Assembly (NCBI GenBank): GCA_029938235.1
Contig: JAOZVH010000004.1
Location: 1 to 37,372, forward strand
Origin: Bacteroidales bacterium
Lineage (GTDB): Bacteria > Bacteroidota > Bacteroidia > Bacteroidales > 4572-128
Length of the DNA: 37,372 bases
Direction: 5' to 3'
In this document: one piece after another, positions 2,413-37,105 of the stretch
Layout of the letters: the number at the start of each line of letters is the position of its first letter
Position numbering within the stretch: position 1 is the stretch's first letter
Notes under the pieces: model-generated
What the model was told of the DNA's origin: nothing
What the model saw: the letters and a program-made list of their open reading frames with translations, nothing else
Database searches by the model: none
Position numbers and translations under genes: made by a program

Positions 2413-2758
2413 AAAAAATTTTTTTCAAAATTCGTCCAAAATTTTAATATTTTTAAATTTCAAAATAAAAAAAATTTTTTTCAAAAATCGTAAAAATTTT
2501 AAGATTTTTAAATTTCAAAATAAAAAAAATTTTTTTTTCAAAAAACGTAAAAATTTTAAGATTTTTAAATTTCAAAATAAAAAAAATTTTTTTCAAAAAA
2601 CGCCCAAAATTTCAAATATTTTAATTTCAAGATAAAAAATTTTTTTTCAAAAAACGCTCAAAATTTCAAATATTTTAATTTCAAAATAAAAAAATTTTTT
2701 TTTTCAAAAAACGCTCAAAATTTCAAATATTTTAATTTCAAAATTAAAAAAAATTTTT
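2413..2758 (+). repeat. Tandem array of 6 units (~54-57 bp) of the A/T-tract satellite
   Basis: Cores TCAAAA(A/T)(A/T)CG start at about 2425, 2481, 2538, 2593, 2647 and 2704. Unit approximates TTTTTTCAAAAATCGTCCAAAATTTTAATATTTTTAAATTTCAAAATAAAAAAAA. Confidence 0.9.
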
Positions 2759-3406
2759 TGGCAAATTTGCAATAATTTCAATTTCTTCTTTTTTAACAGG
2801 GTGTATAAATTTTATTCTTTTAGAATGCAAAGATATTCCAAGATTTTTATTTGGAAAAGAAAAACCATATTTTACATCACCAATAATTGGCGAACCAATT
2901 TTAGATAATTGACTTCTAATTTGATGATGTCGTCCTGTTTCCAAATTTATTTCTAATAGAAATTTATTTTTTATTTTTTTTTTTACATAATAATGCATTA
3001 TTGCCATTTTGGAATTTGCAATTTCTTTATCATAAGAATATGATTTATTTTGTTTTCTATTTCTGTAAATAAAATGTTTTAAAGTTGCATCTTTTTTTTG
3101 GGGACATTTTTTTACCAAAGCGAAATATGTTTTTTCAATATCTCTTTCTTTAAATAATTTATTCAAACGACTAAGAGATTTAGATGTTTTCGCAAATAAA
3201 ACCACACCACTAACAGGTCTATCTATTCGATGAACAATTCCTAAAAAAACATTGCCTTTTTTAAAATATTTTTTTTTTATGAAAATTTTCAACTTTTCCG
3301 ACAAACTTAAATCATTAGTTTTGTCGGATTGAACAATGTCAGAAGTTTTTTTATTTACTGCTATGATATGATTATCTTCATACAAAATTGAAATGTCATC
3401 AATCAT
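2744..3406 (-). CDS. RluA-family RNA pseudouridine synthase
   Basis: ILYEDNHIIAVNK, catalytic HRIDRPVSG, LETGRHHQIR, PIIGDVKYG. Confidence 0.95.
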   Translation of the reverse strand: MIDDISILYEDNHIIAVNKKTSDIVQSDKTNDLSLSEKLKIFIKKKYFKKGNVFLGIVHRIDRPVSGVVLFAKTSKSLSRLNKLFKERDIEKTYFALVKKCPQKKDATLKHFIYRNRKQNKSYSYDKEIANSKMAIMHYYVKKKIKNKFLLEINLETGRHHQIRSQLSKIGSPIIGDVKYGFSFPNKNLGISLHSKRIKFIHPVKKEEIEIIANLPKNFF

Positions 3407-3412
3407 TTAAAT

Positions 3413-4720
3413 TTATTTTTTTCTCATAAAAATATTAATTGGAACTCCGGTAAAATTAAATTTTTTTCGCAAAGAATTTTCAAGATAACGTTTATAAGAC
3501 TCTTTAATATATTGCGGTAAATTACAAAAAAACGCAAAATTTGGTGCGTGAGTTGGTAATTGCATTACATATTTAATTTTTACAAATTTCCCTTTCAAAG
3601 ACGGAGGTTTTATCGCATCAATCAATGGTAACATAACTTCATTTAATTTGGAAGTGGAAATTTTTTGTTTTCTATTTTTATAAACTCCTATAGCTTCATC
3701 TAAACTTTTTAAAACTCTTTGTTTATTTTTTACAGAAGCAAAAATAATCGGAATATCAACAAAAGGAGCAAATTTTTTTAAAATTTCCTCTTGATAATTT
3801 TTTGCTGTGTTTGTTTCTTTTTCTTCTACTAAATCCCACTTATTTATTATTATAACTACACCTTTATGATTTTTTCTTATTATTTCAAAAATATTTACGT
3901 CCTGAGACTCAACTCCATGGGTTGCATCTATCATCAATAAACAAACATCAGAACTTTCTATTGCACGTATAGAACGAATGACAGAATAAAATTCTACATC
4001 TTCATTAACTTTATTTTTTTTCCTAACTCCGGCTGTATCCACAAGAATAAAATTATGTCCAAATTTATTATAAGGAGTGTTTATTGTGTCTCGTGTTGTT
4101 CCGGAAATTTTAGTTACAATATTTCGTTCCTCTCCTATTAAAGCATTAATTAGAGATGATTTACCAACATTTGGACGACCAACAATTGCAAATTTTGGAA
4201 TCTCAATTTCTTCTTCTTCATTTTCTTTGGTAAAAGAACTTACAACTTCATCTAATAAATCACCAGTTCCGGAACCGTTAATGGAAGAAATCGGATAAAT
4301 TTCACCCATTCCAAGGGAATAAAAAACATTCGCATCCATTAAAAGTTGGTTATTATCTGTTTTATTTACAACAAGAAAAACTTTTTTTTCACTTTTTCGC
4401 AAAATATTTGCAACTTCTTCGTCAGAAATTGTTATTCCGGAAAAAACATCAACAAGAAATAAAATAATATCTGCTTCTTCTATGGCAAGAACAACCTGTT
4501 TTTTTATTTCTTTTTCAAAAATATCTTCTGAATTATTTATATAACCTCCAGTATCAACAACAGAAAAATCTATTCCGTTCCAGAAAGATTTTCCATAATG
4601 TCTATCTCTTGTTACTCCGCTACTTTCGTGAACGATTGCTTTTTTTTGACCTGTTAATCTATTAAAAAAAGTCGATTTACCAACATTTGGTCTTCCAACT
4701 ATTGCAACTAAATTGCCCAT
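3413..4720 (-). CDS. der: Ribosome biogenesis GTPase Der (EngA)
   Basis: Two G domains (GRPNVGKS twice; DTGG/DTAG; NKTD/NKWD) plus a C-terminal KH-like domain. Confidence 0.98.
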
Positions 4721-6489: not shown

Positions 6490-6576
6490 TTTTTTTATTT
6501 AAAAATTTTAAAAAATTAAAATTAAAATTAAAATTAAAAAAAAAACGTTTTTTTTGAAAAAATTTTTTTTATTATT

Positions 6577-7668
6577 ATGAAATACTTTTTGGTTATAGCA
6601 ATTTTTTTATCTTTTTTTATTGAAAAAAATTATTCACAAACACAAGATGATTTGAATTTTGGTTTAATTTTATCAGCAGAACAAAATGAAAAAGATTCAT
6701 TAATAAAATTTATTGAAAAAGGTGCAAATGTAAATTCTATGACAAAAAACGGTGTAACTTCGTTAATGTATGCTTGCCAGAATAAAAATAAAGAAATAGT
6801 ATCTATTTTAATTAAAAACGGTGCTGATTTAAATATTTCTCCGAAAGATGGAGTTAGTGCCTTAATTCGTTCTTGTATGAATAATGATTTAGAGATTGTT
6901 AAACTGTTAATTTTTGCATTAGCAGAAGTAAATGTCTCTGATTCCATTTCAAAAAAAACCCCTTTACATTACGCTTTGGATTGGAAAAATAAAGAAATTA
7001 TAAATTATTTACTTGAAAATGAAGCAGATATTTATTATTCAAAAAATGACGAAATTTTAAATCCCATAGAATATTCGGATAAATATGAAGACAAAGAACT
7101 CTATAATTTATTATTAAATTATCAATGTAAAAAACCAATGGAGAATTTTGAAGAAGAAGAAAACTTTGAAGAGGAAGAAAATTTAGAAAAAATAAGTGCC
7201 GCTGAATTTTTTGAATATAAAAAACATTCCTTAGGTTTATCTGCTCATTTTTCATCAGATTTTATTTGGGGAGGAAATTTTGGAATACATGATATTATTA
7301 ATAATTACAGTTTATTTTTTGGTTTTGATGGTCGTATGTTTGCTAAAAGAATTATGATAGAAAAATCAAAAAATATTTTTTATCAATATTGGGAGAGGCG
7401 ATTTTTACTTTATGCTAATGCAAATAAAACTTTTAAAATAAATGAAAATATTGGTTTTTTAATTGGAATGCGAGTAAGTTCAACATGGGGAAGTTATAGA
7501 GGTTCAGATGAAGGTACAGAAACGAAATTTATAATATCTCCACAATTGGGATTTTCAAATGTTTCAAATGAAAATTTATTAATGAGAATTTTTTACGAAT
7601 ATATGGATTTTGCAGTGGAAGAATTTTCTCCACATAGATTTAATATAAGTTTTTCTTACATGTTTTAA
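6577..7668 (+). CDS. Ankyrin-repeat protein with predicted C-terminal outer-membrane beta-barrel
   Basis: Signal peptide; about 4 ankyrin repeats (GANVN...GVTSLMYAC, GADLN...GVSALIRSC, KTPLHYAL); acidic linker; amphipathic beta strands ending FNISFSYMF with terminal Phe. Confidence 0.8.
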   Translation: MKYFLVIAIFLSFFIEKNYSQTQDDLNFGLILSAEQNEKDSLIKFIEKGANVNSMTKNGVTSLMYACQNKNKEIVSILIKNGADLNISPKDGVSALIRSCMNNDLEIVKLLIFALAEVNVSDSISKKTPLHYALDWKNKEIINYLLENEADIYYSKNDEILNPIEYSDKYEDKELYNLLLNYQCKKPMENFEEEENFEEEENLEKISAAEFFEYKKHSLGLSAHFSSDFIWGGNFGIHDIINNYSLFFGFDGRMFAKRIMIEKSKNIFYQYWERRFLLYANANKTFKINENIGFLIGMRVSSTWGSYRGSDEGTETKFIISPQLGFSNVSNENLLMRIFYEYMDFAVEEFSPHRFNISFSYMF

Positions 7669-11901: not shown

Positions 11902-11957
11902 AAATATTTTTCAAATTTTAAAATAAAATATTTTATTTCAAAATTTGAAAAATATTT
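11902..11957. terminator. 56-bp near-perfect palindrome downstream of nqrE (putative terminator or cruciform)
   Basis: AAATATTTTTCAAATTTTAAAATAAAAT / ATTTTATTTCAAAATTTGAAAAATATTT; one mismatch, no loop. Confidence 0.55.
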
Positions 11958-11974
11958 AAATTTTAAGCAATTTT

Positions 11975-12058
11975 TTCAATTTTTTTTTTTTTAATTATTT
12001 AAAATCTTAAAAATTTTGGCGTTTTTTTTGAAAAAAATTTTTTATTTGAAAATTTTTA
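11975..12058 (-). repeat. Single degenerate satellite unit (reverse orientation)
   Basis: AAAATCTTAAAAATTTTGGCGTTTTTTTTGAAAAAAATTTTTT is the reverse complement of the 2413-2758 unit type. Confidence 0.65.
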
Positions 12059-12116: not shown

Positions 12117-13352
12117 ATGAAGAAACTTGATAAACATATTTTTCAACAATTAGAACTTGTTTATAAAAAATATGAATTTTTAAAATCGAAAGAAGAAAAG
12201 TTTAATATTTTTTCAGTATTATACAAAGATTATGAAGAAGTTAAACTGCATTCAAGATTTATTTCAACACTTTTAAATCCTTATGCGTCTCATAAAAAAG
12301 GTTCTATTTTTTTAAAAGAATTTATAAATATATTTTCTGACGATATTTTAAAATTTGATAATTTCGATAAAGCAGTTGTTTATCCAGAAGAATGGAATAA
12401 AAAAGAATATCATCATATTGACATTTTAATAATTGATAGAAAACAACAAAATGCTATCATCATAGAAAATAAACTAAATGCTTATGATAGTAGTAAGGGT
12501 AAACAATTGGAAAGATATTTTAAGTTTGTGAGAGATGAAGAAGAAATTCCTCAAGAAAATATCACTACTTTTTATCTAACATTGGACGGACACGAACCAA
12601 GTGATGATAGTTTAGGAGAGTTTAAAGAATTATCAAATATTAATGGATATTGTATTACATATAATTATCATGTTATAAAATGGTTAAATAGATGTTTAAT
12701 GTACGTTTCTGATAAACCATTTATACGTGAAAGTATTTTTCAATACAAAAATTTAATAAAGAAAATAACAATGGATAATAAAGATATTGAAGAAAGACTT
12801 GAAATTAGAGAAACTATTGCTAAAGATGAGATTTCTATGAACTCAACGAAATACATAATAGATAATTTTAAGCATATTAAATGGCATACTGTGAGAGATT
12901 TTTGGGATGAGTTGAGTTGTAAATTAGTTTCATTAGATTTTGAGGTAGTAGAAGAACCTACTCATGAGCAAATAACAGATATTACTCATTATGAAATATA
13001 TCGTAAAGGACAAAAAGATAAACAATATTGTGGTATTAAATTTAAAGTTAATGAAAATTTAGAATTATTTATTTGGAATGAAGCTGATGACTGGATATAT
13101 TGGGGTGCTTCTATTACAAATGTAAAAAATAGCTCTCTTCATGTTATATTTAATGATTTCTTTTCTTTACAAGAAAAATACAAGTATTGGTGGAAAAATT
13201 CTTTAGAAGATGATAATAGAATTTGGCTTTCAAATTTTTCTCATCAAGCAACTTTTAATCTAATCAATAAAGATAAAAGAGCAAAAGTAGTTGAAAATAT
13301 TATTAAAGAAATAAAAAATTTTTTGATAGTAAAATTACATTTAAAGTTTTAA
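12117..13352 (+). CDS. PD-(D/E)XK nuclease family protein (PDDEXK_4-like)
   Basis: FNIFSVL...EVKLHSRFISTLLNP, IDILI, IIIENK, QLERY, FYLTLDGHEPS. Confidence 0.88.
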   Translation: MKKLDKHIFQQLELVYKKYEFLKSKEEKFNIFSVLYKDYEEVKLHSRFISTLLNPYASHKKGSIFLKEFINIFSDDILKFDNFDKAVVYPEEWNKKEYHHIDILIIDRKQQNAIIIENKLNAYDSSKGKQLERYFKFVRDEEEIPQENITTFYLTLDGHEPSDDSLGEFKELSNINGYCITYNYHVIKWLNRCLMYVSDKPFIRESIFQYKNLIKKITMDNKDIEERLEIRETIAKDEISMNSTKYIIDNFKHIKWHTVRDFWDELSCKLVSLDFEVVEEPTHEQITDITHYEIYRKGQKDKQYCGIKFKVNENLELFIWNEADDWIYWGASITNVKNSSLHVIFNDFFSLQEKYKYWWKNSLEDDNRIWLSNFSHQATFNLINKDKRAKVVENIIKEIKNFLIVKLHLKF

Positions 13353-13614
13353 ATTTAAAATAACTTTGACTAAGTTTAGAATTTCGTCAAAGTTTTTGCG
13401 CCTGCAGTGTTTTTTTATAATGAATAATTGTGTGGTGAAAACTATACAAACCCAAAAAATTGGCATTTTTTTGAAAAATTTTAGGTTTGTACAGTTTGTA
13501 AAAATTTTTACAAAAAAACAACATATTTTTTTATTAAATTTTTTTTTAACAAAATTATTCAAATTTTTAATAGTTTCAAAAAAAAATGCTTTTTTGCGAA
13601 AAAATTAAAAAAAA

Positions 13615-15692: not shown

Positions 15693-15740
15693 TTTTTAAT
15701 AAAATTTTCATTTAAATTTAAATGAAAATTTTATTAAAAA
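15693..15740. terminator. Perfect 48-bp palindrome between convergent BatA-domain gene and ybaB
   Basis: TTTTTAATAAAATTTTCATTTAAA / TTTAAATGAAAATTTTATTAAAAA; no mismatch, no loop. Confidence 0.6.
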
Positions 15741-15768
15741 ATTGCCGTTTTTTTGAAAAAATTTTTTT

Positions 15769-25638: not shown

Positions 25639-25644
25639 AATATT

Positions 25645-26058
25645 TAATTTTTTTTAATTTCAAAATAAAAAATCGTAAAATTTTGAATTAAAAAAAAATT
25701 TTTTTTCAAAAAAACCACTTTTTTTTATGATTTTTTTATAAAAAAATCATAAAATGCTGAAATTTTCAACATTTTTTAAATTAAAAAAAAATCAAAAAAC
25801 TTAAAATTTTAATGTTTTTTAAATTATTAAAAAAAAATTTTTTTCAAAAATCATTGAAATTTTAATGATTTTAAATTATTAATAATAAAAAATTCAAAAA
25901 ATACCGAAATTTTTATGACTTTTAAATTATTTTATTTTTTTTCAAAAATATTAAAATTTTAATGATTTTAAATTTTTAAAAAAATCAAAAATTTTAATAT
26001 TTTTTATATTAATTTTTTTTTATTAAAAAACGTTTTTTTTTAAAATTTAATTTTTGAA
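25645..26058 (+). repeat. Degenerate satellite-derived A/T-tract region
   Basis: Recurring TTCAAAAA...AAAATTTTAATG(A/T)TTTTAAATT elements with decayed CG cores (AATCGTAAAA, AAACCAC, ATACCGAAA). Confidence 0.6.
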
Positions 26059-26065
26059 ATTGTTT

Positions 26066-26170: not shown

Positions 26171-29100
26171 ATGTTTTTGTATTTTTCTTTTTTTTCAATA
26201 AATAAAAAAATACAAATAAAAGAAGATCAAGTAAATATTTTTGGTTTAGAAGAAAATTATTGTGAAAATTCCGAAAATGTAACTTTAATAGGAAATCCAG
26301 AAGGAGGAATTTTTGATGGTCCCGGAATATATGGAAATGAATTTAGACCAAATTCTTTAACAGCAGGAACTTATGAAATAAGTTACATTTTTGGTGAATT
26401 AAGTTATAGCAAAATTGTTACTATTAATACGGTTACAGAATTAAATTTTGAAAATTTAGAATTAGAAAACTTTTTTTGTCAGAATGATACAAATAATATC
26501 GTTTTAAAAGCAAATGTGCAAGGAGGAATTTTCTCTGGAGATGGTGTTCAAGACAGTATTTTTTCACCATTTTTGCTGGAAGCAGGAACGCAAACAATTC
26601 ATTATCAATATTATAATGAGTATAATTGTCTAAGTACAATAGAAAAAGAAATTGAAATAAAAGAAAAACCAAATTTAAGTTTTTCAAATTTAGAAAATAG
26701 ATATTGCAAAAATTCTGAGGATATAGTTTTATCTGCTAATCCAGAAAATGGAACTTTTTATGTCGAAAACATTATAAAAAATAATTTTGAAATTTCTAAT
26801 TTAGAAATTGGAAGTTATGCTATTTCTTATTTTTACAAGGATGAAAATAATTGTACCGATAGCATTTCAAAAAATGTTATAATTAATCCAATTCCTGAAT
26901 TAAATTTTAATTCTTTGGAAGCAGAATATTGTTATAATTCTCAGGACATAATTTTAAATGCAGAACCAGAAGGAGGAATTTTTGAAAATGAAGCAGTTGA
27001 TGGAAATATTTTTAATCCATCTTTACTTTCAAGTTCCGGAGAAACTAACATAGTTTATAATTTTACAGATGAAAATAATTGTCAAAATACAATTTCGCAA
27101 ACAATAAATATTCTCGATTTGCCAGAAATTAATTTCTCAGGTTTAGATGAAAATTATTGTAATAATGATAATTCTGGAAACATTTTAAATGGTGAACCTG
27201 CAGGAGGAGTTTTTTCTGGTTCTGGAATAATTGGAAATAAATTTTATCCAAAAAATCTTTCCGAAGGAACTTATGAAATTACATACAATTTTAGTGATGA
27301 AAATCTTTGTTACAACTCTGTAAAAAAAATTGTAAATATTTTTGGAGCTGGAGAAATTTCCATAGAAAATCTTGAAAATGAATATTGTATAAATTCTGAA
27401 AATGTAAATTTAGAAGTAAATATAAACGGAGGAATTTTTTCCGGCGACGGAATAACCGGAAGTATTTTTTCACCGAATGATGCTGGAGTTGGAGCAAAAA
27501 CTATAAATTACTCTGTGGAAGACGCTAATAATTGTCAATTGAATCATTCAAAAAATATTGTTATTTATGATTTGCCAGAAGTAACTATGCAATCTTTGAC
27601 AGAAAATTATTGTGTCAATTCAGATGATGTTGCTATAATTGTTTTTCCTGAGAATGGTGAATTTTCCGGAGATATAGAAATTTTAAACAACACTTTTTCG
27701 CCAAGTAATATTGTCGCAGGAAATTATGAAATTTCATATTCGTACACAAATGAAAAATCTTGTTCTAATACAATAACACAAAATATTTCCATTAATAATT
27801 TACCAATTTTAGATTTTGAAGGTTTGGAAAGTTCTTATTGTGGAAATGAAAATCCTGTAAATTTAACGCCAAATATTGAAGGAGGAATTTTTTCTGGAGT
27901 TGGAGTAAATTCTGCCAACGCAACTTTTAATCCAAACAATCTTATTCCAAATGAGTATGAAATTTATTATACATTTACAGATGAAAATTCCTGTACAAAT
28001 ATAGATACTCAGAAAGTAGAAATTCTTGGTCTTTATGATTTAGAGATTTTAAATCTATATGATTCTTATTGTTCTGATGCTTTGCCTATTTTGTTAGAAA
28101 CAAATTTGAACGGTGGAACTTTTACCGGAAATGGAATGGTTGGAAATCAATTTAGACCGTCAGATGCAGAATATGGAATTTTTGAAATTTCTTATCAATT
28201 TAGCGATGCAAATTTATGTGTCAGTGAAGTTAAAAAGATGGTTACTGTTTATTCTGCTCCGGAAGTTGATTTTGAAAATTTAGAGAGTGATTATTGTGAA
28301 AATTCTAATGTCGTAAATTTAGTTGGAATTCCTGAAAATGGAAGTTTCGAAGGAAATGGAATTGACGAAAAAGCATTTAATCCAGAAATTGCTGGTGAAG
28401 GTATTCATTCTATTTCTTATTCTTATACAGACGAAAATGGTTGTTATGCTTCAAAAATAAAAACCGCTATAGTTCATCCGATAGAAGATATTGATTTTAA
28501 CGGTATAGAGGAAGAATATTGTTTGAATACAGAAGATGCTATTTTAACTTCGGAAACAGAAAATGGAACTTTTTATGGTGATGGAATTTCTGGAAATTTA
28601 TTTAAGCCAAATTTGGCTGGAGTTGGAAATCACACGGTAACTTATTCTGTTACAGATGAATATCTTTGTACACATTCTAAAACTAAAAATCTTGTGGTTT
28701 ATGATTTGCCAAATGCAAATTTTATTAATTTTGACCAAACTTATTGTTTAACAAGTCCAGAAGTAATTTTACTTCCCGGTAATGAAAATGGCATTTTTTC
28801 CGGAGACGGAATAATTGAAAATGAGTTTAAATTTTCGCCAGAACTTGCTGGTCTTGGTGAGCATCAAATTACTTATACAGTAACTGACGAAAATAATTGT
28901 ACAAATACAGAAACAAAAAAAACTGATATTTTGGAAGTTCCTGAATTAGAAATTTTGGGTTTAGAAGACAATTATTGTATTGGAATTACAGAAATTGAAT
29001 TATCTGCAAATTTAGAAGGAGGAACTTTTTCTGGCGATGGAATAGTTGGAAATTATTTTTATCCAAATAATTTAGAAGTTGGAACTTATGAAGTTTTTTA

Positions 29101-32100
29101 TAATTTTAATAATTATTGTGATAATACCATCAGCAAAACTGTAAATATTCGTGGATTACCAGAATTAAATTTTGATGGTTTAGATGAAAATTATTGTCAT
29201 AATGCTGATTTTGTAAATCTTTCCTCAGAGCAAGAAAATGGTATTTTCTCTGGAAATGGAATAATAGAAAATAAATTTTTTCCACAAAATGCAGAAATTG
29301 GAGAAAATGAAATTACATATACTTACACAGACGAATTTAATTGTGAAAATTCAATTTCAAAAAGTGTAAATATTTATGAAATTGCGGAATTAGATTTTGA
29401 TGGTTTAGATGAAAATTATTGCATAAATTCTGTATTTGCTATTTTAACTCCAAATATTGAAGGGGGAAGTTTTTCCGAAAATATAGAAAATAATGAATTT
29501 AATTCTCAAAATTTAGGAGTTGGTACACATCAAATAACTTATTCTTTTACAGATTTAAATAATTGTTTTTTATCAAAAACGAAAAACGTTTCTGTAAATG
29601 ATATTCCAGAAATAAATATTTTAAATTTAGACGATGAATATTGTGAAAATTCTTTTTCTGTAAATTTAGAATCGTCGCCTGCAAATTGTAATTTTTCCGG
29701 AAACGGTGTAATTGATAATGTTTTTACACCGTCTTTAGCTTCGTATGGAATTAACACAATTATTGCAACTTTTACAGATGAAAAAAATTGTTCAAATTCC
29801 ATTTCAAAAGATGTTTCTATTTTTGATATGGAAGATTTAACTATAGAAAATCTCGAAAATGATTATTGCGAAGATGCAGAAAATGTTACTTTATCTGCAA
29901 ATATAGATGGAGGAACTTTTAGCGGAGCTGGTATAAATGAAAATATTTTTAGCATAAATAATTCTGGAATTGGTGAACATACAATTTATTATAATTACAC
30001 AGATTTAAATAATTGTACACAAATAATTTCTCAAAATGTTAATGTCCATCAAAATCCAGTTGTTGATTTTGGTTACACAACAAATATTTTTACAGATACG
30101 CCTGAAAATATTGTTTTAAATGCTGGTGCTGGATTTTCATCTTACGAATGGCAAGATGGCTCTAACGCACAAGCTTTTAATGTTCAAACTTGGGGAGATT
30201 ACAGTGTAGAAGTTACAGATGAAAATTCTTGTAAAAGTATCGCTGAGGTATCTATTTCTTTTAGTACTAATGATTTAGGAATAAAAAAAATCATTTCTCC
30301 TGTTTCAAAATGTGAACTTAGCGATAATGAAAATATTATTTTAGAAATAGAAAATTGCGGAGAAACTATTTTAGCAGGTGAAACTATCACCATAAATTAT
30401 AATATAGGTTCAACTCCTTTTGTTGAAGTAATTACATTAGAAGAAGATTTTCTTGCTTATACAAGTTTAATACATACTTTTTCACAAACAGCAGATTTTT
30501 CTAATTTTGAAAGTTATGATTTTGCGTTTTCTTTGGCAGGTGGAGATGGAAATTTTACTAATGATACAAAAAATGCTGTAATTAAAAATTTAAATTTTGT
30601 TGATTTAGCTTTAGATTTTGAAAATTTAGAAGACAATTATTGTATAAATTCTGAAAATTCTTTATTAACTACAAATGTAGAAGGTGGAATTTTTTCTGGA
30701 AATGGAATTAATGAAAATTATTTTTCTCCGGAATTAGCTGGTGAAGGAATTCATGAAATTAAATATACTTATATAAATGAAAATAATTGTGTTTCTGAAA
30801 TTACAAAAAATGTAGAGGTTTTTGATGTTCCAAATTTTGATTTTGAAATTAATGATTCATATTGTATGGGTTCAAATCCAGTGTTTTTAAATGCTTCTGT
30901 TGAAGGAGGTAATTTTTCTGGAAACGGAATTAATGGAATTAATTTTAATCCTAATGTTGCAGGAGTTGGAAGTCATAATATTTCTTATAATTACACAGAC
31001 GGAAATAGTTGTAATTATGAAATTACAAAATCAGTAAATATTTATGAGCCGCTTATTGCGAATATTAACGGTTTAAATGATGTTTATTGTAAAAATGGAG
31101 AAAGTTCAATTTTAATTGGTTTTCCAGAAAGTGGTTCTTTTTCAGGAACAGGAATTAGTGGAAGTGTTTTTAACCCTAATTTTGCAAATGACGGTGAAAA
31201 TACAATTTATTATAATGCTACAGATTTTAACGGTTGTGCTGTAAATACGACAAAAAATGTTTTTATTAATTCTTTAGAGGATTTAGATTTTGATTTAGAA
31301 GAAAATTATTGTATAAATTCAGAAAATATTTTATTAACACCAAATTTAGAAAATGGTATTTTTTCCGGAGAAGGAATTTTTGAAAATAATTTTTTCAATC
31401 CAAGTGTTTCTGGAATTGGTAATAATGCGATAACTTACACTTATAAAGATGAAAATAATTGTGTTTCTCAAATTACAAAAGAAACTAATATTTTAAGTGT
31501 TGGAGAGGTAGATTTTGACGGTTTAGAAAATGAATATTGTGTAAATTCCGAAGATCTTATTCTTTTACCAACCATTGAAAATGGTATTTTTTCCGGAGAA
31601 GGTATTGATGGAAATACTTTTTCGCCAGAAAATGCCGGAGAAGGTGCAAAAAACATAACTTATTCTGTTACTACAGAAAATAATTGTTTAATTTCTGTTA
31701 CAAAAAATGTAATTATTCACGGTTTACCGTCTTTAGAATTTAAAAATTTAGAAGATTTTTATTGTGTTTCTGAGCAAGGTTTTATTATGAATACAAATTA
31801 TACCGGAGGAATTTTTTCAGGAAACGATGGAATTGCTGGAAATGGATTTTTTCCACAAATTGCAGGTTCAGGAACTCATACTATAAATTATAATTTTACA
31901 GACGAAAATTCTTGTGAAAATACCATTTCAAAAGAAGTAGAAATTATAGAATTGCCTGATGCAAGTTTTACAGAATTAGAAGAAGAATATTGTTTAAATA
32001 CTCCAGATATAGATTTAGAAGCTTCAAATGAAGGAGGAATTTTTTCCGGAGATGGAATAATAGAAAATAAATTTTATCCGGAATTTGCAGGACTTGGAAC

Positions 32101-35100
32101 TCATATTTTAGAATATTCTTATACGGATGAAAATAATTGTAAAAATGATCTTTCACAAAATGTAACAATTAGAAATATTCCAAATGTAAAATTTAGAATG
32201 TTGGATAATAGTTTTTGTAAATCTGACGAAGCCATAGAATTGGAAGCAACTCCAACAGGTGGAACTTTCTCCGGAAATGGTGTTAATGGTGAATTTTTTG
32301 ACCCAAATGATGCTGGCGTAGGAACTCATAATATTGAATATAATTATGTAAATAATTTTAATTGCAGTAACACAGCTATAAAAAGTTTTACTATAAATGA
32401 TGTTCCAAGTTTAGATTTTCAAGGACTTGAAAATGAATATTGTCATAATTCTGACATTGTGAATTTAACACCAAATTTAACTGGTGGAATTTTTAGCGGA
32501 ATAGGAATTTATGAAAATACTTTTAATCCATCTTCATTAGAAACAGGAGTTTATAATATAAGTTACTCTTTGAATACAGAAAATAATTGTTATTCAAGTG
32601 TAGAAAAATCTGTTACTATTTTACCAATAATTGATGTAGATTTTACAAATTTAGATACTGACTTTTGTATAAATGAGACAAATATGACTTTGTCAGCAAA
32701 CGATGAAAATGCAACTTTTTCCGGAACAGCGGTTAATAAAAATATTTTTAATCCAAGTGTTGCAGGAATTGGGACGAATACAATAAATTTACATTTTACT
32801 GACGAAAATAATTGTAATATTGTAAAAAGCGAAATTGTAAATATACATTCTTTGCCGAATGTAGATTTTCAAAATTTAGAAAACGAATATTGTTTAAGTT
32901 CTGATACTGTACATTTACAAGGAAATTTTGAAAATGGAAATTTTTATTTTGATAATTCGGCTCTGGGAGATACTTTTTTTAGAATTGATAATTATAATGT
33001 TGGAAATCATCAAATAAAATTTTCTTATTTAGACGAATTTAATTGTTTTTCTTATAAAACTAAGGATTTTGTTATTGCTAATTTGCCACAAATAGAATTT
33101 GTAAATTTAGAAGAAGAATATTGTAAAAATTCTGAAGAAGTAATTTTACAATCAAATTTTCCAGAAAGTATTTTTTCCGGAGAAGGAGTTGTTGATGGAG
33201 TTTTTTATCCAAATCTTTTAGATGAAAATGTAGAAACTACAATTATTTACTGTTCATATACAGATGAAAAATCTTGTGTAAATTCTATAGAAAAAGAAAT
33301 TACAATAAATTATCCGACAGAAATAAGTTTTGAAAATTTAGAAAATTCCTATTGTTTAAATGATGAAATTGTAGTTTTAAATTCAGAATTTGAAAATTCT
33401 TATTTCTCTGGAAATGGAGTTATCGGAAACACTTTCAATCCAGAACTTGCTGCAGCAGGAGAGCATAATATTTATTTGCATTTTGTAAATGATAATAATT
33501 GTTTTTCTGATATTTCGCAAAGCGTAAATGTTTTAGAATTGCCGAATTTAAGTTTTGAAAATTTAGAAAATTCATATTGTAAAAATGACGAAAAAATTGC
33601 TTTGGAAGCAAATTTTGAAAATGCAATTTTTGAAATTCAAGCAGAAGAAAAAGATACTTTAGATATTCCAAACTTGGAAGTTGGAAGTTATAATATTATT
33701 TGTAATTATACAGATGAAAATTCTTGTTCAAATTCCATTTCAAAAAATGTAATTATAAATAACTTTCCTGACGCAAATTTTCAAGGTTTAGATACTGCAT
33801 ATTGTCAAAATTCTTTATTTTCTGTTTTACAAGCAAATGAAAATGGAGGAGAATTTAATGGTGATGGTCTAATTGAAAATATTTTTTATCCGAATTTATT
33901 AGATTCAGGAAATTATGAAATTTCTTATAATATAACTAATGAAAATAATTGTTCAAATTCTTTTACAAAACTTGTAAAAATTCATCATTTAGAGGAAATT
34001 ATTTTTTTAAATTTAGAAGAAAATTATTGTAAAAATGACATTGTAGTTTTAAAAGCTGCTCCTTCTGATGGATTTTTTGAGGGTTTTGGAATAGAAAGCG
34101 ATTCTATTTTTAAAGCTATTAGCTCTGGCGAACAAATTATTTTTTATAATTACACAGATACAAATAATTGTTTTCAGAAAGTTTCAAGAATTACAAATAT
34201 AAGGAATTTACCAATTATTGAATTTGATGAATTAGAAAAAAATTATTGTAAGAATGATATTTTAATTGCATTAAATGGAAATCAATTATCAGGTATTTTT
34301 TCCGGAGATGGGATAATAGGAAATAATTTAAATCCATCTTTGGCAGATGCTGGAGAAAATCAAATAACTTATTCATATACAGATAATAATAATTGTACAT
34401 CAGAAATATCGCAAAGTTTTAATATTAATCTTTTGCCTGATTTAAGTTTTGAAAATTTAGAAAATCATTATTGTAAAAAAGATGAAATTATAAATATACA
34501 AACATCTCCAACTTATGAAAATACTAATTTTTCTGGTGGAAATACAGATAAAGATGACGAGCTTTCATTAAATGAAATTGGAACTTTTATAATAAATGCA
34601 TCTTATACAGATGAAAATTTATGTGAAAATTCCATTTCACAAAATATAGAAATTCATGATTTACCAACCGTTTCTATTAATTTGGATTCTTTAGATTATT
34701 GCAAAGGTAATTCTTTACACCAATTAAGTGTTTCGCCAGAAGGAGGAACTTTTGAAGGAATGGAAGTTATAGATAATTCTTTCAGTATAGATAAATTGGA
34801 AAGTGGAAATTATAAAATTGTTTATGAGTTTACAGATGGATTTTCTTGTACTGCAAAAGACTCTGTAAATTTCGAAATTCATAGTTTACCGAGTGTAAGT
34901 TTTTCTGGAATAGATGAAGAATATTGTTTAAATAATGATACTGTTCATTTAACAGGAACTCCGGAAAATGGAATTTTCTCTAACTATACAGATACTTCAT
35001 TTTTTGTGCCGTCTATTTCCGGAGATTTTGAAATTAAATATGAGTTTGTGGACGAGTTTTTTTGCAAAAATTCGCAAACAAAAAACTTTACAGTTCATAA

Positions 35101-36763
35101 TTTACCAGATATTTCTTTCGAAGGTTTAGCGGAAAATTATTGTAAAAATAGTGAATTTGATATTTTAACAGCAAGTATTTCTTCGGCGACTTTCTCTGAA
35201 AATATAGAAAATGAAAATGAATTTCATCCGGAAAATGCTGATATTGGAGAAAATACGATTTTTTTAACTTACACAGACCAAAACCTTTGTACTGCTTTGG
35301 ATTCTCAAAAAACCATAGTTTATGAAATTCCAGAGATAACTTTTGAAATTGAAAATAATGTATTTTGTATAAATGATGCACAAATTTTTTTAGATGTAAA
35401 TCCATTAGGAGGAACTTTCGAAGGAAATGCTCTTACAAATAATTCATTTTTCCCATCTGAAGCAGGAGCAGGAACTCAGGAAATTATTTATACTTATACT
35501 GACGAAAATTTTTGTACAAATTTTGTTACGCAAGAAATAATTGTAAATCCTTTGACGGATTTGAGTTTTATAAATTTAGAAGAAAGATATTGTGAAGATT
35601 TTGGAGATATAGAATTGCAAGCATATCCAAGTGGTGGAAAATTTTATAAGAACAATTCTTTTGAAGATGAAATTGAGAATTTTGTATATGAATATCCGGG
35701 GGATTATATTATTACTTATAAACACACAGACGAAAATAGTTGTAAAAATAGCATTTCAAAAAATATCAGAATAATGCCTTTGCCAAATGTTGATATTTTA
35801 AATTTGGATAGTATTTTTTGTGTAAATTCTAATGATATTGAGATTTTGCCATTTCCATTTACAGCAAAACTTTTTTATAATAATGAAGAAATAAATGAAA
35901 ATATTTTTTCTCCGGAAGATTTTGGAGTGGGAAGTTTTGAAATTATTTGTAAATATGAAGACATAAACAATTGTAAAAATTCTAAAACGAAAATAATAAA
36001 AGTCAAAGACATTCCTGATGTGGAATTTTTATTAGATTCAGATACTTTATTATGTCAAAATAGTGATTCTATTTTATTAAAAGCCATTCCAAAAGGTGGA
36101 ACTTTTTCTGGACTTGGTGTTGAAAAAGACTCTTGTTTTTTTCCTGAAATTGCAAATATTGGAACTCATAAAATTAAATATGTTTTCACAGATACTACAG
36201 CTTCTGATAAAAAATGTTCAAATTTTGCGGAAATAAATTTAAAAGTAAATTCTTTACCAAATTTAGAATTTGAAAAAAGTATTATAGAAACAGATTTACC
36301 TTTGAATTTGTATAATACTTTGAATATTGAAAATACTGACACTGATACGAGTTTTTTTAATTTCATTTGGAATGATGGTATTATTGATTTATTAAATTAT
36401 GAAATTAAAAATTACGGTAATTATTCTTTAAAATTGGAAAATAGAGATACAAAATGTTCTATTTTTGAAAATATTTCTATTGAACGAAGTTCTAATTATG
36501 GAAGATTAGTAATTAATGCTTATCCAAATCCATCTTATTCTCGTGATAAGTTAATGATTTCTGTTGACCAACTTGAAGAAAAAGATGTTGTTATTGAACT
36601 TTTAACTTTTATTGGTCAAGTTTTATATCATAAAGAAATTAAAGATGTTTTATTTTTTGTTGATGAATTTGATATTTCTAATTTAGAAGAGGGAATTTAT
36701 TTTATTAGAGTAAATTACGGAGTTCAAGAAAACACAATTAAAAAAGTTGTAATTATGAAATAA
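26171..36763 (+). CDS. Giant T9SS type-A-sorted surface protein: 42 tandem ~75-aa Cys-containing Ig-like repeats, central Ig + CARDB-like insert, C-terminal CTD (true start probably upstream, about 26126)
   Basis: Repeat consensus F-x-x-L-x-x-x-YC-x-N...GGxFSGxG...FxP...G...IxYxYTDENNC...xxP, counted by hand as 17 + 25. CTD has AYPNP...ELLTFIGQ...DISNLEEGIYFIRV...KKVVIMK. Confidence 0.93.
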   Translation: MFLYFSFFSINKKIQIKEDQVNIFGLEENYCENSENVTLIGNPEGGIFDGPGIYGNEFRPNSLTAGTYEISYIFGELSYSKIVTINTVTELNFENLELENFFCQNDTNNIVLKANVQGGIFSGDGVQDSIFSPFLLEAGTQTIHYQYYNEYNCLSTIEKEIEIKEKPNLSFSNLENRYCKNSEDIVLSANPENGTFYVENIIKNNFEISNLEIGSYAISYFYKDENNCTDSISKNVIINPIPELNFNSLEAEYCYNSQDIILNAEPEGGIFENEAVDGNIFNPSLLSSSGETNIVYNFTDENNCQNTISQTINILDLPEINFSGLDENYCNNDNSGNILNGEPAGGVFSGSGIIGNKFYPKNLSEGTYEITYNFSDENLCYNSVKKIVNIFGAGEISIENLENEYCINSENVNLEVNINGGIFSGDGITGSIFSPNDAGVGAKTINYSVEDANNCQLNHSKNIVIYDLPEVTMQSLTENYCVNSDDVAIIVFPENGEFSGDIEILNNTFSPSNIVAGNYEISYSYTNEKSCSNTITQNISINNLPILDFEGLESSYCGNENPVNLTPNIEGGIFSGVGVNSANATFNPNNLIPNEYEIYYTFTDENSCTNIDTQKVEILGLYDLEILNLYDSYCSDALPILLETNLNGGTFTGNGMVGNQFRPSDAEYGIFEISYQFSDANLCVSEVKKMVTVYSAPEVDFENLESDYCENSNVVNLVGIPENGSFEGNGIDEKAFNPEIAGEGIHSISYSYTDENGCYASKIKTAIVHPIEDIDFNGIEEEYCLNTEDAILTSETENGTFYGDGISGNLFKPNLAGVGNHTVTYSVTDEYLCTHSKTKNLVVYDLPNANFINFDQTYCLTSPEVILLPGNENGIFSGDGIIENEFKFSPELAGLGEHQITYTVTDENNCTNTETKKTDILEVPELEILGLEDNYCIGITEIELSANLEGGTFSGDGIVGNYFYPNNLEVGTYEVFYNFNNYCDNTISKTVNIRGLPELNFDGLDENYCHNADFVNLSSEQENGIFSGNGIIENKFFPQNAEIGENEITYTYTDEFNCENSISKSVNIYEIAELDFDGLDENYCINSVFAILTPNIEGGSFSENIENNEFNSQNLGVGTHQITYSFTDLNNCFLSKTKNVSVNDIPEINILNLDDEYCENSFSVNLESSPANCNFSGNGVIDNVFTPSLASYGINTIIATFTDEKNCSNSISKDVSIFDMEDLTIENLENDYCEDAENVTLSANIDGGTFSGAGINENIFSINNSGIGEHTIYYNYTDLNNCTQIISQNVNVHQNPVVDFGYTTNIFTDTPENIVLNAGAGFSSYEWQDGSNAQAFNVQTWGDYSVEVTDENSCKSIAEVSISFSTNDLGIKKIISPVSKCELSDNENIILEIENCGETILAGETITINYNIGSTPFVEVITLEEDFLAYTSLIHTFSQTADFSNFESYDFAFSLAGGDGNFTNDTKNAVIKNLNFVDLALDFENLEDNYCINSENSLLTTNVEGGIFSGNGINENYFSPELAGEGIHEIKYTYINENNCVSEITKNVEVFDVPNFDFEINDSYCMGSNPVFLNASVEGGNFSGNGINGINFNPNVAGVGSHNISYNYTDGNSCNYEITKSVNIYEPLIANINGLNDVYCKNGESSILIGFPESGSFSGTGISGSVFNPNFANDGENTIYYNATDFNGCAVNTTKNVFINSLEDLDFDLEENYCINSENILLTPNLENGIFSGEGIFENNFFNPSVSGIGNNAITYTYKDENNCVSQITKETNILSVGEVDFDGLENEYCVNSEDLILLPTIENGIFSGEGIDGNTFSPENAGEGAKNITYSVTTENNCLISVTKNVIIHGLPSLEFKNLEDFYCVSEQGFIMNTNYTGGIFSGNDGIAGNGFFPQIAGSGTHTINYNFTDENSCENTISKEVEIIELPDASFTELEEEYCLNTPDIDLEASNEGGIFSGDGIIENKFYPEFAGLGTHILEYSYTDENNCKNDLSQNVTIRNIPNVKFRMLDNSFCKSDEAIELEATPTGGTFSGNGVNGEFFDPNDAGVGTHNIEYNYVNNFNCSNTAIKSFTINDVPSLDFQGLENEYCHNSDIVNLTPNLTGGIFSGIGIYENTFNPSSLETGVYNISYSLNTENNCYSSVEKSVTILPIIDVDFTNLDTDFCINETNMTLSANDENATFSGTAVNKNIFNPSVAGIGTNTINLHFTDENNCNIVKSEIVNIHSLPNVDFQNLENEYCLSSDTVHLQGNFENGNFYFDNSALGDTFFRIDNYNVGNHQIKFSYLDEFNCFSYKTKDFVIANLPQIEFVNLEEEYCKNSEEVILQSNFPESIFSGEGVVDGVFYPNLLDENVETTIIYCSYTDEKSCVNSIEKEITINYPTEISFENLENSYCLNDEIVVLNSEFENSYFSGNGVIGNTFNPELAAAGEHNIYLHFVNDNNCFSDISQSVNVLELPNLSFENLENSYCKNDEKIALEANFENAIFEIQAEEKDTLDIPNLEVGSYNIICNYTDENSCSNSISKNVIINNFPDANFQGLDTAYCQNSLFSVLQANENGGEFNGDGLIENIFYPNLLDSGNYEISYNITNENNCSNSFTKLVKIHHLEEIIFLNLEENYCKNDIVVLKAAPSDGFFEGFGIESDSIFKAISSGEQIIFYNYTDTNNCFQKVSRITNIRNLPIIEFDELEKNYCKNDILIALNGNQLSGIFSGDGIIGNNLNPSLADAGENQITYSYTDNNNCTSEISQSFNINLLPDLSFENLENHYCKKDEIINIQTSPTYENTNFSGGNTDKDDELSLNEIGTFIINASYTDENLCENSISQNIEIHDLPTVSINLDSLDYCKGNSLHQLSVSPEGGTFEGMEVIDNSFSIDKLESGNYKIVYEFTDGFSCTAKDSVNFEIHSLPSVSFSGIDEEYCLNNDTVHLTGTPENGIFSNYTDTSFFVPSISGDFEIKYEFVDEFFCKNSQTKNFTVHNLPDISFEGLAENYCKNSEFDILTASISSATFSENIENENEFHPENADIGENTIFLTYTDQNLCTALDSQKTIVYEIPEITFEIENNVFCINDAQIFLDVNPLGGTFEGNALTNNSFFPSEAGAGTQEIIYTYTDENFCTNFVTQEIIVNPLTDLSFINLEERYCEDFGDIELQAYPSGGKFYKNNSFEDEIENFVYEYPGDYIITYKHTDENSCKNSISKNIRIMPLPNVDILNLDSIFCVNSNDIEILPFPFTAKLFYNNEEINENIFSPEDFGVGSFEIICKYEDINNCKNSKTKIIKVKDIPDVEFLLDSDTLLCQNSDSILLKAIPKGGTFSGLGVEKDSCFFPEIANIGTHKIKYVFTDTTASDKKCSNFAEINLKVNSLPNLEFEKSIIETDLPLNLYNTLNIENTDTDTSFFNFIWNDGIIDLLNYEIKNYGNYSLKLENRDTKCSIFENISIERSSNYGRLVINAYPNPSYSRDKLMISVDQLEEKDVVIELLTFIGQVLYHKEIKDVLFFVDEFDISNLEEGIYFIRVNYGVQENTIKKVVIMK

Positions 36764-36780
36764 TTATAATTTAAAAATTT

Positions 36781-36816
36781 AAAAAAATTCCAAAATTAAA
36801 ATTTTGGAATTTTTTT
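36781..36816 (+). terminator. 17-bp stem hairpin right after the giant gene
   Basis: AAAAAAATTCCAAAATT-AA-AATTTTGGAATTTTTTT. Confidence 0.7.
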
Positions 36817-37105
36817 TCAAAAAACTCCCAAAATTTCAACAATTTATTCGAAAAAAATTTTTCAAAATTCACCCCAAAATTTCAACATTTTTTAATTTAA
36901 AAGAATAAAAAAAAAATTTTTTCAAAAATCGTCCAAAATTTCAATATTTTTTAAATTGAAAATAAAAAAATTTTTTTCAAAAAACGTCCAAAATTTTAAT
37001 GTTTTTAAAAAAACAACATTGGAGGTTTTTTTTTAACCTCCAATGTTTCGACATCAAAAATCGTCCAAAATTTCAATATTTTTTAATTTAAAAGAATAAA
37101 AAAAA
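36811..37105 (+). repeat. Array of about 5 satellite units, interrupted by a GC-richer hairpin
   Basis: TCAAAAAACTCCCAAAATTT, TCAAAATTCACCCCAAAATTT, TCAAAAATCGTCCAAAATTT (twice) and TCAAAAAACGTCCAAAATTT. Confidence 0.85.
37015..37047. repeat. 13-bp inverted repeat (REP-like or terminator hairpin)
   Basis: AACATTGGAGGTT-T7-AACCTCCAATGTT. Confidence 0.7.

Follow-up and report, generated by a model that had tools for sequence, protein, structure and literature searches.

The stretch of DNA analysed here (the window, 37,372 nt) belongs to an uncultured, very AT-rich Bacteroidota bacterium and holds three clean arrays of one repeat unit, a decayed array, and scattered fragments. Array 1 (2412..2759, plus strand) consists of six head-to-tail units of 54-57 nt, three copies apiece of two variants; TRF gives it a period of 57, 6.2 copies and 90% matches, and all six units are matched by our profile (E 2e-11 to 8e-4). 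It fills, stop to stop, the spacer of the convergent ORFs 1782..2387(+) and 2744..3406(-). Array 2 (19558..19984, minus strand) is composed of seven units of 53-58 nt (profile E 6e-12 to 3e-9), with a partial copy, reduced to the core, on its left margin; TRF delimits it at 19580-19984 with a period of 55, 7.3 copies and 92% matches. This array also occupies a convergent spacer from stop to stop, between ORFs 17243..19495(+) and 19983..21134(-). Array 3 comprises five plus-strand units at 36816-37103, one of them split by a hairpin at 37015-37047. Its left part (36816..37009) contains four units (E 7e-3, 1e-5, 6e-12 and 2e-6), of which the first is weak and the last is cut short at position 39 of the model, where the hairpin is inserted, and the final unit of the array (37051..37103, plus strand, E 1.5e-9) lies 3' of the hairpin. 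To the right of array 3 there are an open ORF fragment of 25 codons on the minus strand (37294-37371) and a minus-strand terminator-like hairpin. The initial annotation had recorded these arrays at 2413-2758, 19561-19982 and 36811-37105, placing the two cleanest between convergent genes and, probably, the third as well. The profile bears out all three arrays and TRF the first two, the flanking ORFs of arrays 1 and 2 are indeed convergent, and the minus-strand ORF fragment and hairpin make the same placement reasonable for array 3.

The decayed array (25643..26058, strand mixed) lies between the tandem ORFs 23815..25638(+) and 26171..36763(+). A periodicity of ~50 nt is still present there: TRF reports weak periods of 52 and 97 nt with 70-75% matches at 25751-26003, and the profile yields one match at E 1e-4, with several weaker ones (E 0.05-8) on the two strands. 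The core CG is gone from most units. Thus, weak as they are, periodicity and profile matches agree with the decayed array previously claimed at 25645-26058. Two partial copies of the core half (11931..12045, minus strand) were found upstream of ORF 12117..13352(+) in a window-only profile search (E 0.046 and 0.006). Three further core-like fragments, all on the minus strand, were seen by eye and are below significance: ~35 nt at 6536..6570, in a divergent spacer directly upstream of ORF 6577..7668(+) (best profile E 2.6); ~30 nt at 13454..13482 (no profile match under E 5 within 150 nt); and ~35 nt at 15736..15770, adjoining the stop of ORF 15769..16077(-) (best profile E 8). Of the single or half copies listed earlier, the one near 12020 therefore stands, as two partial matches, and those near 6540, 13460 and 15745 reduce to eye-visible core-like fragments of ~30 nt with E of at least 2.6.

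Each unit is built around a conserved core of ~20 nt with the pattern TCAAAAAWCGYCCAAAATTT and close variants, which is the only G/C-bearing part; outside it there are A/T tracts, in part self-complementary, and the GC content of 111 arrays is 12%. The CG-containing core described in the initial annotation is well conserved, C9 being retained in 90% and G10 in 96% of 927 full-length units, and the core pattern occurs at 1626 places genome-wide, versus 5 for a reversed control. Read from the unit sequences, the core looks like two YCAAAA half-sites ~10 nt apart. The units fall into two main length classes (53-57 and 44-47 nt), which emerge as TRF period peaks and differ by ~10 nt, about one helical turn; the spacing of profile matches has its mode at 55-56 nt and ranges over 53-58 nt. 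The core is common to units of the 55-nt and 46-nt classes and to solo copies. Since the units abut head to tail without unique spacers and the entire period is repeated, a CRISPR array was rejected; a tRNA or tmRNA origin was rejected as well, as neither is present in the window.

Phased An/Tn tracts at 10-12 nt, and hence curved DNA, had been proposed for the unit, and neither claim fared well. The 11-bp harmonic is weak (p=0.023 for AA, p=0.036 for TT, p=0.28 for AA/TT combined) and is equalled in strength by a 13.75-bp harmonic. In a wedge-model prediction, with three classic controls behaving correctly, the end-to-end/contour ratio of the 111 real arrays (0.843) equals that of other non-coding DNA of the genome (0.830, p=0.89). 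Shuffled arrays give 0.890, so that the real ones are predicted to be only slightly more curved, versus 0.40-0.44 for phased A-tract controls.

Genome-wide, the profile matches 1834 units at 762 loci (E<=0.01), distributed over 272 of the 328 contigs, with no match in a second-order Markov copy of the genome. When non-coding DNA alone was searched, 2437 matches were obtained, versus 1, 7 and 52 in order-1, -3 and -5 Markov copies; the initial annotation had raised shuffled intergenic composition as a possible source of the motif, and such chance occurrence is excluded. Taken together, both length classes cover 25.7% of 545,585 non-coding bases (E<=0.01), versus 0.1-0.5% in the Markov controls. 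At least four profile units are present at 159 of the 762 loci, and single-match loci lie within degenerate alignments with a median of 173 nt. By TRF, the 3.36-Mb genome has 456 tandem repeats of at least four copies (136 per Mb), 263 of which belong to the satellite. Identity is 90% between neighbouring units and 85.5% between units from different contigs. The satellite is also abundant in the one same-genus genome (strict profile load 3.7% of bases, and 2.8% in the genome studied here). Of the 151 genomes of the order that were examined, it was detected in these two alone, with no match in 148 other families.

Arrays were found in all spacer types and in both orientations. According to our crude in-house ORF calls, the repeat is present in 116 of the 336 convergent spacers, in 220 of the 1457 tandem ones and in 73 of the 375 divergent ones. 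An enrichment by flanking-gene orientation, anticipated earlier, is thus real for convergent over tandem spacers (odds ratio 3.0) and only partial overall, 293 of the 409 occupied spacers not being convergent. The median distance from the repeat is 62 nt to a stop and 108 nt to a start, and 152 of the 220 tandem spacers have it nearer the upstream stop. No overall strand bias was seen: the tandem spacers contain 94 units that run in the direction of the genes and 111 that run against it. Solo cores located within 150 nt upstream of starts are, nevertheless, biased in orientation (83 vs 44, p 7e-4), so that the repeat sequence is not wholly neutral to transcription. Inspection by eye for the canonical Bacteroidetes promoter boxes revealed no perfect -7 box at proper spacing in the unit. 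The TTTG-type boxes of the genes themselves sit nearer the start codons than the repeat unit does.

Comparison with the same-genus genome, which is ~95% identical, points to rapid turnover. Of nine collinear orthologous sites, four short ones (38-86 nt) have the same length in both genomes; the longer arrays differ in length in three cases (364 vs 588, 292 vs 496 and 482 vs 386 nt) and almost match in another (200 vs 206 nt). The ortholog of array 1 has six units of other variants and another left neighbour, and array 2 has no counterpart 3' of the orthologous WD40 gene. Of 132 well-matched flanks, 26 reach an array edge in the same-genus genome at places where the repeat is absent from ours. 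None of the 6 + 9 collinear sites examined was an empty orthologous site, at which an insertion mechanism or a target-site duplication would show. Only 6 of 119 array regions are collinear, versus 255 of 357 matched array-free spans (Fisher p 1e-40), and 240 of the 656 contig ends of our genome are no more than 300 nt away from an array. Since both genomes were binned from short-read metagenomes, copy numbers and joins across arrays, and hence this rearrangement signal, could be partly assembly error.

Overall, we consider it probable that the feature is one non-coding, lineage-specific interspersed minisatellite superfamily, which slippage and recombination maintain and which is tolerated at a distance from promoters. 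A self-propagating, lineage-specific non-coding repeat was the alternative offered in the initial annotation, and it is supported by the restriction to one genus, the thousands of copies and the rapid turnover. In such a scenario, arrays would grow and shrink through replication slippage or unequal recombination, while recombination between arrays, with no transposase involved, would keep copies at different loci alike and seed new spacers. Selection would remove just those copies that disturb promoters, and such purging would explain the nearness to stops, the convergent excess and the preferred orientation near starts. The hundreds of near-identical arrays would incidentally provide dispersed homology that reshuffles gene order and accessory segments, and short-read assemblies would break at them. 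Some observations count against the satellite reading. A core common to both length classes and to solo copies is what would be expected of a protein site, the length classes differ by about one helical turn, and the solo cores near starts are biased in orientation. Moreover, coding density is 84%, yet the genome would carry ~140 kb of functionless DNA, which is unexpected under deletion bias and could mean that the repeat is kept by selection.

The strongest of the rival explanations, to which we give a rather low probability, is an architectural one: the arrays might serve as tracks on which a protein that recognises the CG core, nucleoid-associated or otherwise DNA-binding, is loaded or polymerises, the unit length setting the rotational register of successive sites. 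Its appeal lies in the core, which is the best-conserved part of the unit, the sole one to bear G/C, shared by both classes and solo copies and divisible into two YCAAAA half-sites. The tight period with a second class ~10 nt shorter and the similar load in both genomes also fit an architectural role, and the same case has been argued for the constant-size repeats of Bacillus (PMC8161180). However, many loci are decayed and have lost the core, presence/absence and copy number vary between genomes that are ~95% identical, the predicted curvature is like that of other non-coding DNA, and no candidate protein emerged. A tight period, moreover, is passed on by tandem duplication itself, with no need for selection. 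We may go further and speculate, with even less confidence, that some protein encoded by the lineage assembles into a polymer along the CG cores with their two half-sites, successive sites being kept in a constant rotational register, and that the arrays double as docking homology for a transposase-free exchange of accessory segments between chromosomal sites or between cells. A fixed register of protein sites would explain why the only two common unit lengths are about one helical turn apart.

It is considerably less probable that the arrays act as a terminator, insulator or supercoil sink between convergent genes. Such a role would agree with the threefold odds of occupancy in convergent over tandem spacers, with the stop-to-stop filling of two convergent spacers in the window and with the repeats being nearer stops than starts, but most of the occupied spacers are of other types, and avoidance of promoters by junk DNA would yield an equal pattern. 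The structure of the unit speaks against this role too. A terminator-like scan of 19000-37372 found no G/C-stem hairpin plus T-run in arrays 2 and 3 and flagged only the separate inserted hairpin, and units fold no better than shuffles (RNA and DNA z-scores from -0.03 to -1.76, both strands). The units follow no consistent orientation with respect to the upstream gene, and termination does not need multi-copy arrays. With neither a hairpin plus T-run nor a strand bias in the satellite units, the initial suggestion of a terminator at convergent transcription is not upheld. The inserted hairpin itself (37015..37047, minus strand), a 13-bp stem followed by a T-run and lying within a satellite unit, belongs to a family separate from the satellite. 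This family occurs at 34 places in the genome, and 62 of its 68 strand-hits fall within 100 bp of the satellite, versus 9.4% of the genome.

We assign very little probability to the satellite having come from a MITE, IS or other transposable element, either as a relic of one or as an inner segment, in the manner of BrickBuilt of Porphyromonas gingivalis. Its dispersal over hundreds of loci in both orientations would suit a mobile element, there is a Bacteroidales precedent of a minisatellite inside a MITE (PMC4596501), and small hairpin and GC-palindrome repeats recur beside the arrays. The termini, however, are not fixed: at the 529 of 762 loci that could be analysed, start and end phases spread over nearly all 55 positions. 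No common flank, leader, tail or inverted repeat was detected in 72 left and 91 right flanks, where the commonest G/C-containing words are found in only 7 of each flank set and come from other small repeats. Nor is any multicopy transposase linked to the arrays. The Transposase_31 (YhgA-like) and PDDEXK_4 genes of the window were considered as makers of the repeat and rejected, having 4 and 1 further weak paralogous places, respectively, not consistently beside arrays. Equally improbable are arrays serving as templates for functional small RNAs, as suggested for the transcribed 52-nt repeats of Bacillus coagulans: the transcription of Bacillus repeats (PMC8161180, PMC8625621) offers an analogy, and the orientation bias of solo cores near starts implies some interplay with transcription, but there is no significant secondary structure on either strand, no Rfam family at the gathering threshold across the whole window and no overall strand preference, and the arrays are extremely A/T-rich.

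Dispersed non-coding satellite families have been described as rare in prokaryotes (PMC6749651, PMC8161180). In the genome described here, from a phylum other than the Firmicutes, a single family of this kind reaches roughly 80-136 arrays per Mb and accounts for at least a quarter of the non-coding DNA. Should the arrays prove to be sites of rearrangement, they would rank among the main forces behind changes in gene order and the flux of accessory genes in the lineage, and in practice they would help to make metagenome bins fragmented or chimeric. If they are protein-bound, they would offer a tractable case for why some bacteria keep fixed-length satellites.

Several known systems invite comparison. 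REP/BIME elements are intergenic repeats defined by a stable imperfect palindrome. The satellite resembles them in being intergenic, often 3' of genes, present in both orientations and lineage-specific; unlike them, it lacks a unit that folds better than shuffles, and the inserted 13-bp-stem hairpin family is closer to REP/BIME. MIRUs, in turn, lie inside operons and carry small overlapping reading frames, unlike the satellite, whose units are rich in stop codons, lie mostly outside operons and have no such frames. In Mycobacterium tuberculosis, MIRU/VNTR loci are described as tandem repeats of 46-101 bp at 41 loci, 12 of them variable in copy number (PMC3914561). They share with the satellite the character of an interspersed intergenic minisatellite, a similar unit size and a copy number that varies between close relatives (in our case with the short-read caveat), but the satellite occupies ~20-fold more loci and is AT-rich rather than GC-rich (PMC3914561).

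BrickBuilt of P. gingivalis is reported to have 19 copies, with units of 23 nt and with leader and tail subunits that end in inverted repeats (PMC4596501). Both it and the satellite belong to Bacteroidales, are always intergenic, consist of spacer-free tandem units, have a limited host range and possibly interact with promoters; the satellite differs in having no leader, tail or inverted ends and in its hundreds of loci (PMC4596501). Leptospira interrogans and Methanocella conradii have dispersed non-coding satellite families of 3-6 members each, according to a survey of 261 reference genomes in which more than 4 satellites per Mb counted as rich (PMC6749651). These families are likewise non-coding, with long units (37-69 nt) at several places per genome, but they are far smaller than a set of repeats that TRF detects at 136 per Mb (PMC6749651).

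For Bacillus and other Firmicutes, Subirana and Messeguer (2021) described non-coding tandem repeats of constant size, 52 nt and 20-21 nt, and stated that the 52-nt repeats occur only in Firmicutes (PMC8161180). As far as that description goes, the satellite is like the Bacillus repeats in its short non-coding arrays, mostly of 4-10 units and many per genome, in a unit length that is not a multiple of three, in a short signal common to all units, and in being species- or lineage-specific and shared only in part by close strains, whose arrays rarely keep the same length. Unlike them, it has periods of 53-57 and 44-47 nt, outside the constant sizes of 51-53 and 20-21 nt, a GC content of 12% and a Bacteroidota host, and it forms one superfamily with 85% identity between loci, in place of several unrelated families of equal length (PMC8161180). 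It is also denser, with 456 TRF repeats (263 of them satellite) in 3.36 Mb versus 26-103 repeats per 3-5.5-Mb genome in Tables 1 and 4 of the Bacillus survey, in which the detection software differs (PMC8161180). Overall, the nearest described kinds are the 52-nt constant-size repeats of Bacillus and the MIRU loci, and, as the Bacillus precedent of ~52 nt cited in the initial annotation is genuine (PMC8161180), the satellite is better regarded as a variant of a described kind than as the undescribed system it was first taken for.

The satellite is a non-coding tandem structure, the units of which abut head to tail with zero spacers between them when the window sequence is read directly. In TRF, array 1 (2412-2759, +) has a period of 57 with 6.2 copies and 90% matches, and array 2 (19558-19984, -) appears at 19580-19984 with a period of 55, 7.3 copies and 92% matches. 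Array 3 (36816-37103, +), seen by sequence reading, the profile and the terminator scan, comprises five units, one of them split by a hairpin with a 13-bp stem. Arrays do decay: at 25643-26058, the CG of the core is gone from most units (TRF, sequence and profile). TRF, sequence reading and the profile all place the arrays where the initial annotation had put them. The single or half copies it had listed fared unevenly, since the one near 12020 stands with weak profile significance, while near 6540, 13460 and 15745 only core-like fragments of ~30 nt are visible, by eye.

The hairpin within array 3 (37015-37047, -) consists of the stem halves ACATTGGAGGT and ACCTCCAATGT followed by a T-run, and was flagged as terminator-like. 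It recurs at 33 further places in G000, the source genome of the window, and the satellite is no more than 100 nt away from 62 of its 68 strand-hits, as it is for 9.4% of the genome. One possibility is that this hairpin is the real terminator, the other that it is a small element targeting the A/T run of the unit. Beyond array 3, clustered GC-rich palindromes (37106-37230; 8-bp stem GTCAAGCG / CGCTTGAC, 4-nt loop) stand in surroundings of 12-25% GC. These palindromes are REP/BIME-like; the genome contains 15 complete copies, and 12 of the 30 strand-hits have satellite no more than 100 nt away.

The repeat is abundant in G000 (3.36 Mb, 328 contigs, 23.7% GC), of which the window is one entire contig, C54. 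A first profile, built from 13 window units and used at E≤0.01, gave 1834 matches on 272 of the 328 contigs. A second-order Markov copy of the genome gave none. The matches form 762 loci spanning 94,982 bases together (327 single-match, 159 with at least four matches, maximum 11), and unit-to-unit spacing is mostly 53-58 nt, with a mode of 55-56. A second-round profile from 927 full-length units, run on 545,585 bases outside crude ORF calls, found 2437 matches at E≤0.01, compared with 1, 7 and 52 in Markov copies of this non-coding DNA of order 1, 3 and 5. Whole-genome TRF returned 456 non-redundant repeats (period of at least 10, at least 4 copies), or 136 per Mb, with period peaks at 53-57 and 44-47. 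The core is common to both length classes; the shorter one (44-47 nt) has an A/T part ~10 nt shorter, and is rarer in the sampled contigs of G001, the only same-genus genome compared. The difference from the 53-57-nt class is about one helical turn. With a second profile devoted to the short class, both classes combined cover 31.5% of non-coding DNA at E≤1 (controls 1.7-4.5%); at E≤0.01 they cover 25.7% against 0.1-0.5% in controls, clearly more than shuffled intergenic composition gives, against the refuting condition that the initial annotation had set.

All 55 of the 55 unit positions are fairly conserved among the 927 units, and 19802-19856 (-) is a good real copy in the window. The only G/C-bearing part is the ~20-nt core, with the pattern TCAAAAAWCGYCCAAAATTT, in which C9 and G10 are conserved at 90% and 96% in the same units. 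A looser core pattern matches 1626 genomic places (480 solo, 1146 arrayed), and its reversed-sequence control 5. Neighbouring units are 90% identical, those further apart in the same array 89%, and those on different contigs 85.5%. Weak opposite-strand profile matches lie inside every unit because its second half is partly self-complementary.

We consider the family to be, probably, an interspersed minisatellite. The main rival explanation would give the arrays a protein-loading or architectural role, which seems rather unlikely to us. The CG core common to both length classes, the tight period and the spacing of the two classes by about one helical turn would speak in its favour. The special curvature proposed at first does not hold up. 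In the consensus, AA (p 0.023) and TT (p 0.036) each show a modest 11-bp harmonic, and AA/TT combined show none (p 0.28). Curvature was predicted by a dinucleotide wedge model, which recovers the classic controls (curved A6N4, curved A4T4N2, straight T4A4N2). The end-to-end/contour ratio is 0.843 in 111 real arrays, 0.890 in their shuffles, 0.830 in 683 non-satellite non-coding G000 segments (p 0.89 vs arrays) and 0.40-0.44 in the curved controls. Since the arrays resemble other non-coding DNA and are far from the curved controls, they are not specially curved. The satellite has no fold either: unit dimers folded as RNA and DNA on both strands gave z-scores of only -0.03 to -1.76, and Rfam has no family for it.

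The satellite also has no termini. The phases at which arrays start and end are scattered across nearly all unit positions (529 of the 762 loci, leaving out those near contig ends, mixed-strand or with N), and a comparison of the flanks of arrays with at least three units (72 left, 91 right) showed no common leader or tail. Two genes of the window, Transposase_31 and PDDEXK_4, were rejected as makers of the repeat, having few paralogues and no consistent array association. As for the suggested terminator role, a consensus terminator scan of 19000-37372 flagged zero satellite units and only the inserted hairpin.

Placement relative to genes is promoter-distal. By spacer types resting on crude ORF calls made for G000, the repeat is present in 116 of 336 spacers between convergent genes, 220 of 1457 between tandem genes and 73 of 375 between divergent genes (convergent-vs-tandem odds ratio 3.0). 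The median distance from a repeat edge is 62 nt to the neighbouring stop and 108 nt to the neighbouring start, and when a tandem spacer is occupied, the repeat lies closer to the upstream stop in 152 of 220 cases. There is no orientation bias overall (convergent, 56 vs 57; tandem, 94 co-oriented vs 111 anti-oriented). Of the solo cores located up to 150 nt upstream of a start, however, 83 are anti-oriented and 44 co-oriented (p 7e-4), and within 40 nt, 19 run against the gene and 2 with it; this bias points to an interplay with transcription start regions. Window solo cores in such a setting are 6536-6570 and 11931-12045. The 51 loci 'inside genes' (40 listed) are mostly short ORFs arising from the repeat itself.

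The window, read with the standard bacterial code, encodes BatA and a type IX secretion sorting domain, which indicates Bacteroidota. That domain, C-terminal, is the sole Pfam match of a 3530-aa ORF (26171-36763, +), near which lie a WD40 protein (750 aa) and an ankyrin-repeat protein. A 197-aa ORF without a Pfam family (23133..23726, +) contains a 24-nt coding tandem repeat (23498-23662, 7 copies) with many His/Asp/Lys codons, and is followed by a terminator-like hairpin with a perfect 20-bp stem (23757-23800). The Transposase_31 (YhgA/Rpn-like) gene (8167-9195, +), with a 12-nt coding repeat in its 3' part (8969-9091), is an indel between the window and G001 (~940 nt at 8248-9191 vs 63 nt); an 80%-identical copy lies elsewhere in G001.

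As far as searched, the satellite appears restricted to the lineage of G000 and G001. Allowing at most 1 mismatch, the 20-nt core was counted 1084 times in G000, 741 times in G001 and 0-1 times in each of 29 genomes from 29 other families of the order; the reversed core is absent from G000 and G001 and never exceeds 1 elsewhere. A sequence-only covariance model from 15 window units, with 37 candidates scored per genome, has strong matches in G000 and G001 only among 151 genomes of 148 families, in agreement with the lineage specificity first proposed, and a single marginal match in each of three further genomes. A one-genome-per-species scan gave, among the matches listed, many in one metagenome-assembled Bacteroidetes record and singles elsewhere. 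In a metagenome collection, 35 of 123 loci among the matches listed have at least two units; these 35 have 12-27% GC (one exception, 38%) and flanks mostly 70-99% identical to G000. Such multi-unit copies, together with the confinement of strong matches to G000 and G001, indicate that the repeat is real in independent assemblies and, within what was searched, lineage-restricted.

Genes of G001 are 93-97% identical to those of the window, and in the 63 of its 150 contigs sampled (904,409 bases) there are 641 units in 226 loci, the longest array having 20 units. The ortholog of array 1 there is an array of 6 units, with the same right-hand gene, other unit variants and another left neighbour; after the WD40-gene ortholog there is no array and another downstream gene. 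For 119 testable G001 array regions, the 400-nt flanks were collinear in G000 in 6 cases, on different contigs in 60, found on one side only in 42 and on neither in 11, compared with 255, 37, 43 and 22 of 357 matched array-free spans. Among 132 flanks at ≥90% identity, 74 run to the array edge with repeat also in G000 and 26 with none. On the G000 side of 103 junctions with homology to the array edge, there is repeat running into other sequence (60), repeat and then contig end (18) or no repeat (25). Array length does change at orthologous sites: of 9 collinear sites in the reverse comparison, 4 short ones (38-86 nt) are equal in both genomes, and of the longer arrays three differ and one is nearly equal. 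Some of the breaks and joins at arrays may be assembly artefacts, since the two genomes are bins assembled from short reads, and in G000 an array lies no more than 300 nt away from 240 of the 656 contig ends. At G000 C71:917-2318 and G001 L104:5622-6983, a ~1-kb segment that differs between the genomes is flanked by two arrays, and the G001 segment within the same outer flanks lies in G000 on contig C127, adjoining another array. Either the arrays have exchanged segments like cassettes or the assembly is wrong here.

The evidence fits an interspersed minisatellite, in which slippage or unequal exchange would alter array length and arrays would decay where renewal is absent. Recombination between arrays, rather than transposition, would keep the loci alike and probably seed new spacers; arrays would persist where promoters stay unharmed, and might take part in rearrangements.

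Finally, we would like to compare the family with known satellites. The ~52-nt precedent in Bacillus is genuine: Subirana and Messeguer describe non-coding repeats with a constant length of 52 nt (and 20-21 nt), species-specific, with short signals in common and partial conservation across strains, those of the 52-nt type being transcribed in B. coagulans and stated there as Firmicutes-only, with 26-103 repeats per genome (PMC8161180). In a survey of 261 reference genomes by these authors, Leptospira interrogans and Methanocella conradii were the only ones with dispersed families of non-coding satellites that have long units (PMC6749651). MIRUs are described as 46-101-bp repeats at 41 loci (PMC3914561), and BrickBuilt as a MITE of Bacteroidales that contains a 23-nt minisatellite and ends in inverted repeats (PMC4596501). 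The present family works as the Bacillus, MIRU and BrickBuilt minisatellites do. However, it fails the defining features of each: unlike the Bacillus repeats, its unit is not 52 nt and it is one sequence family, not many; unlike BrickBuilt, it is without inverted-repeat ends; and it has no hairpin. Overall, the family is best classed with bacterial interspersed satellite DNA, among which its phylum, extreme A/T content and density stand out.
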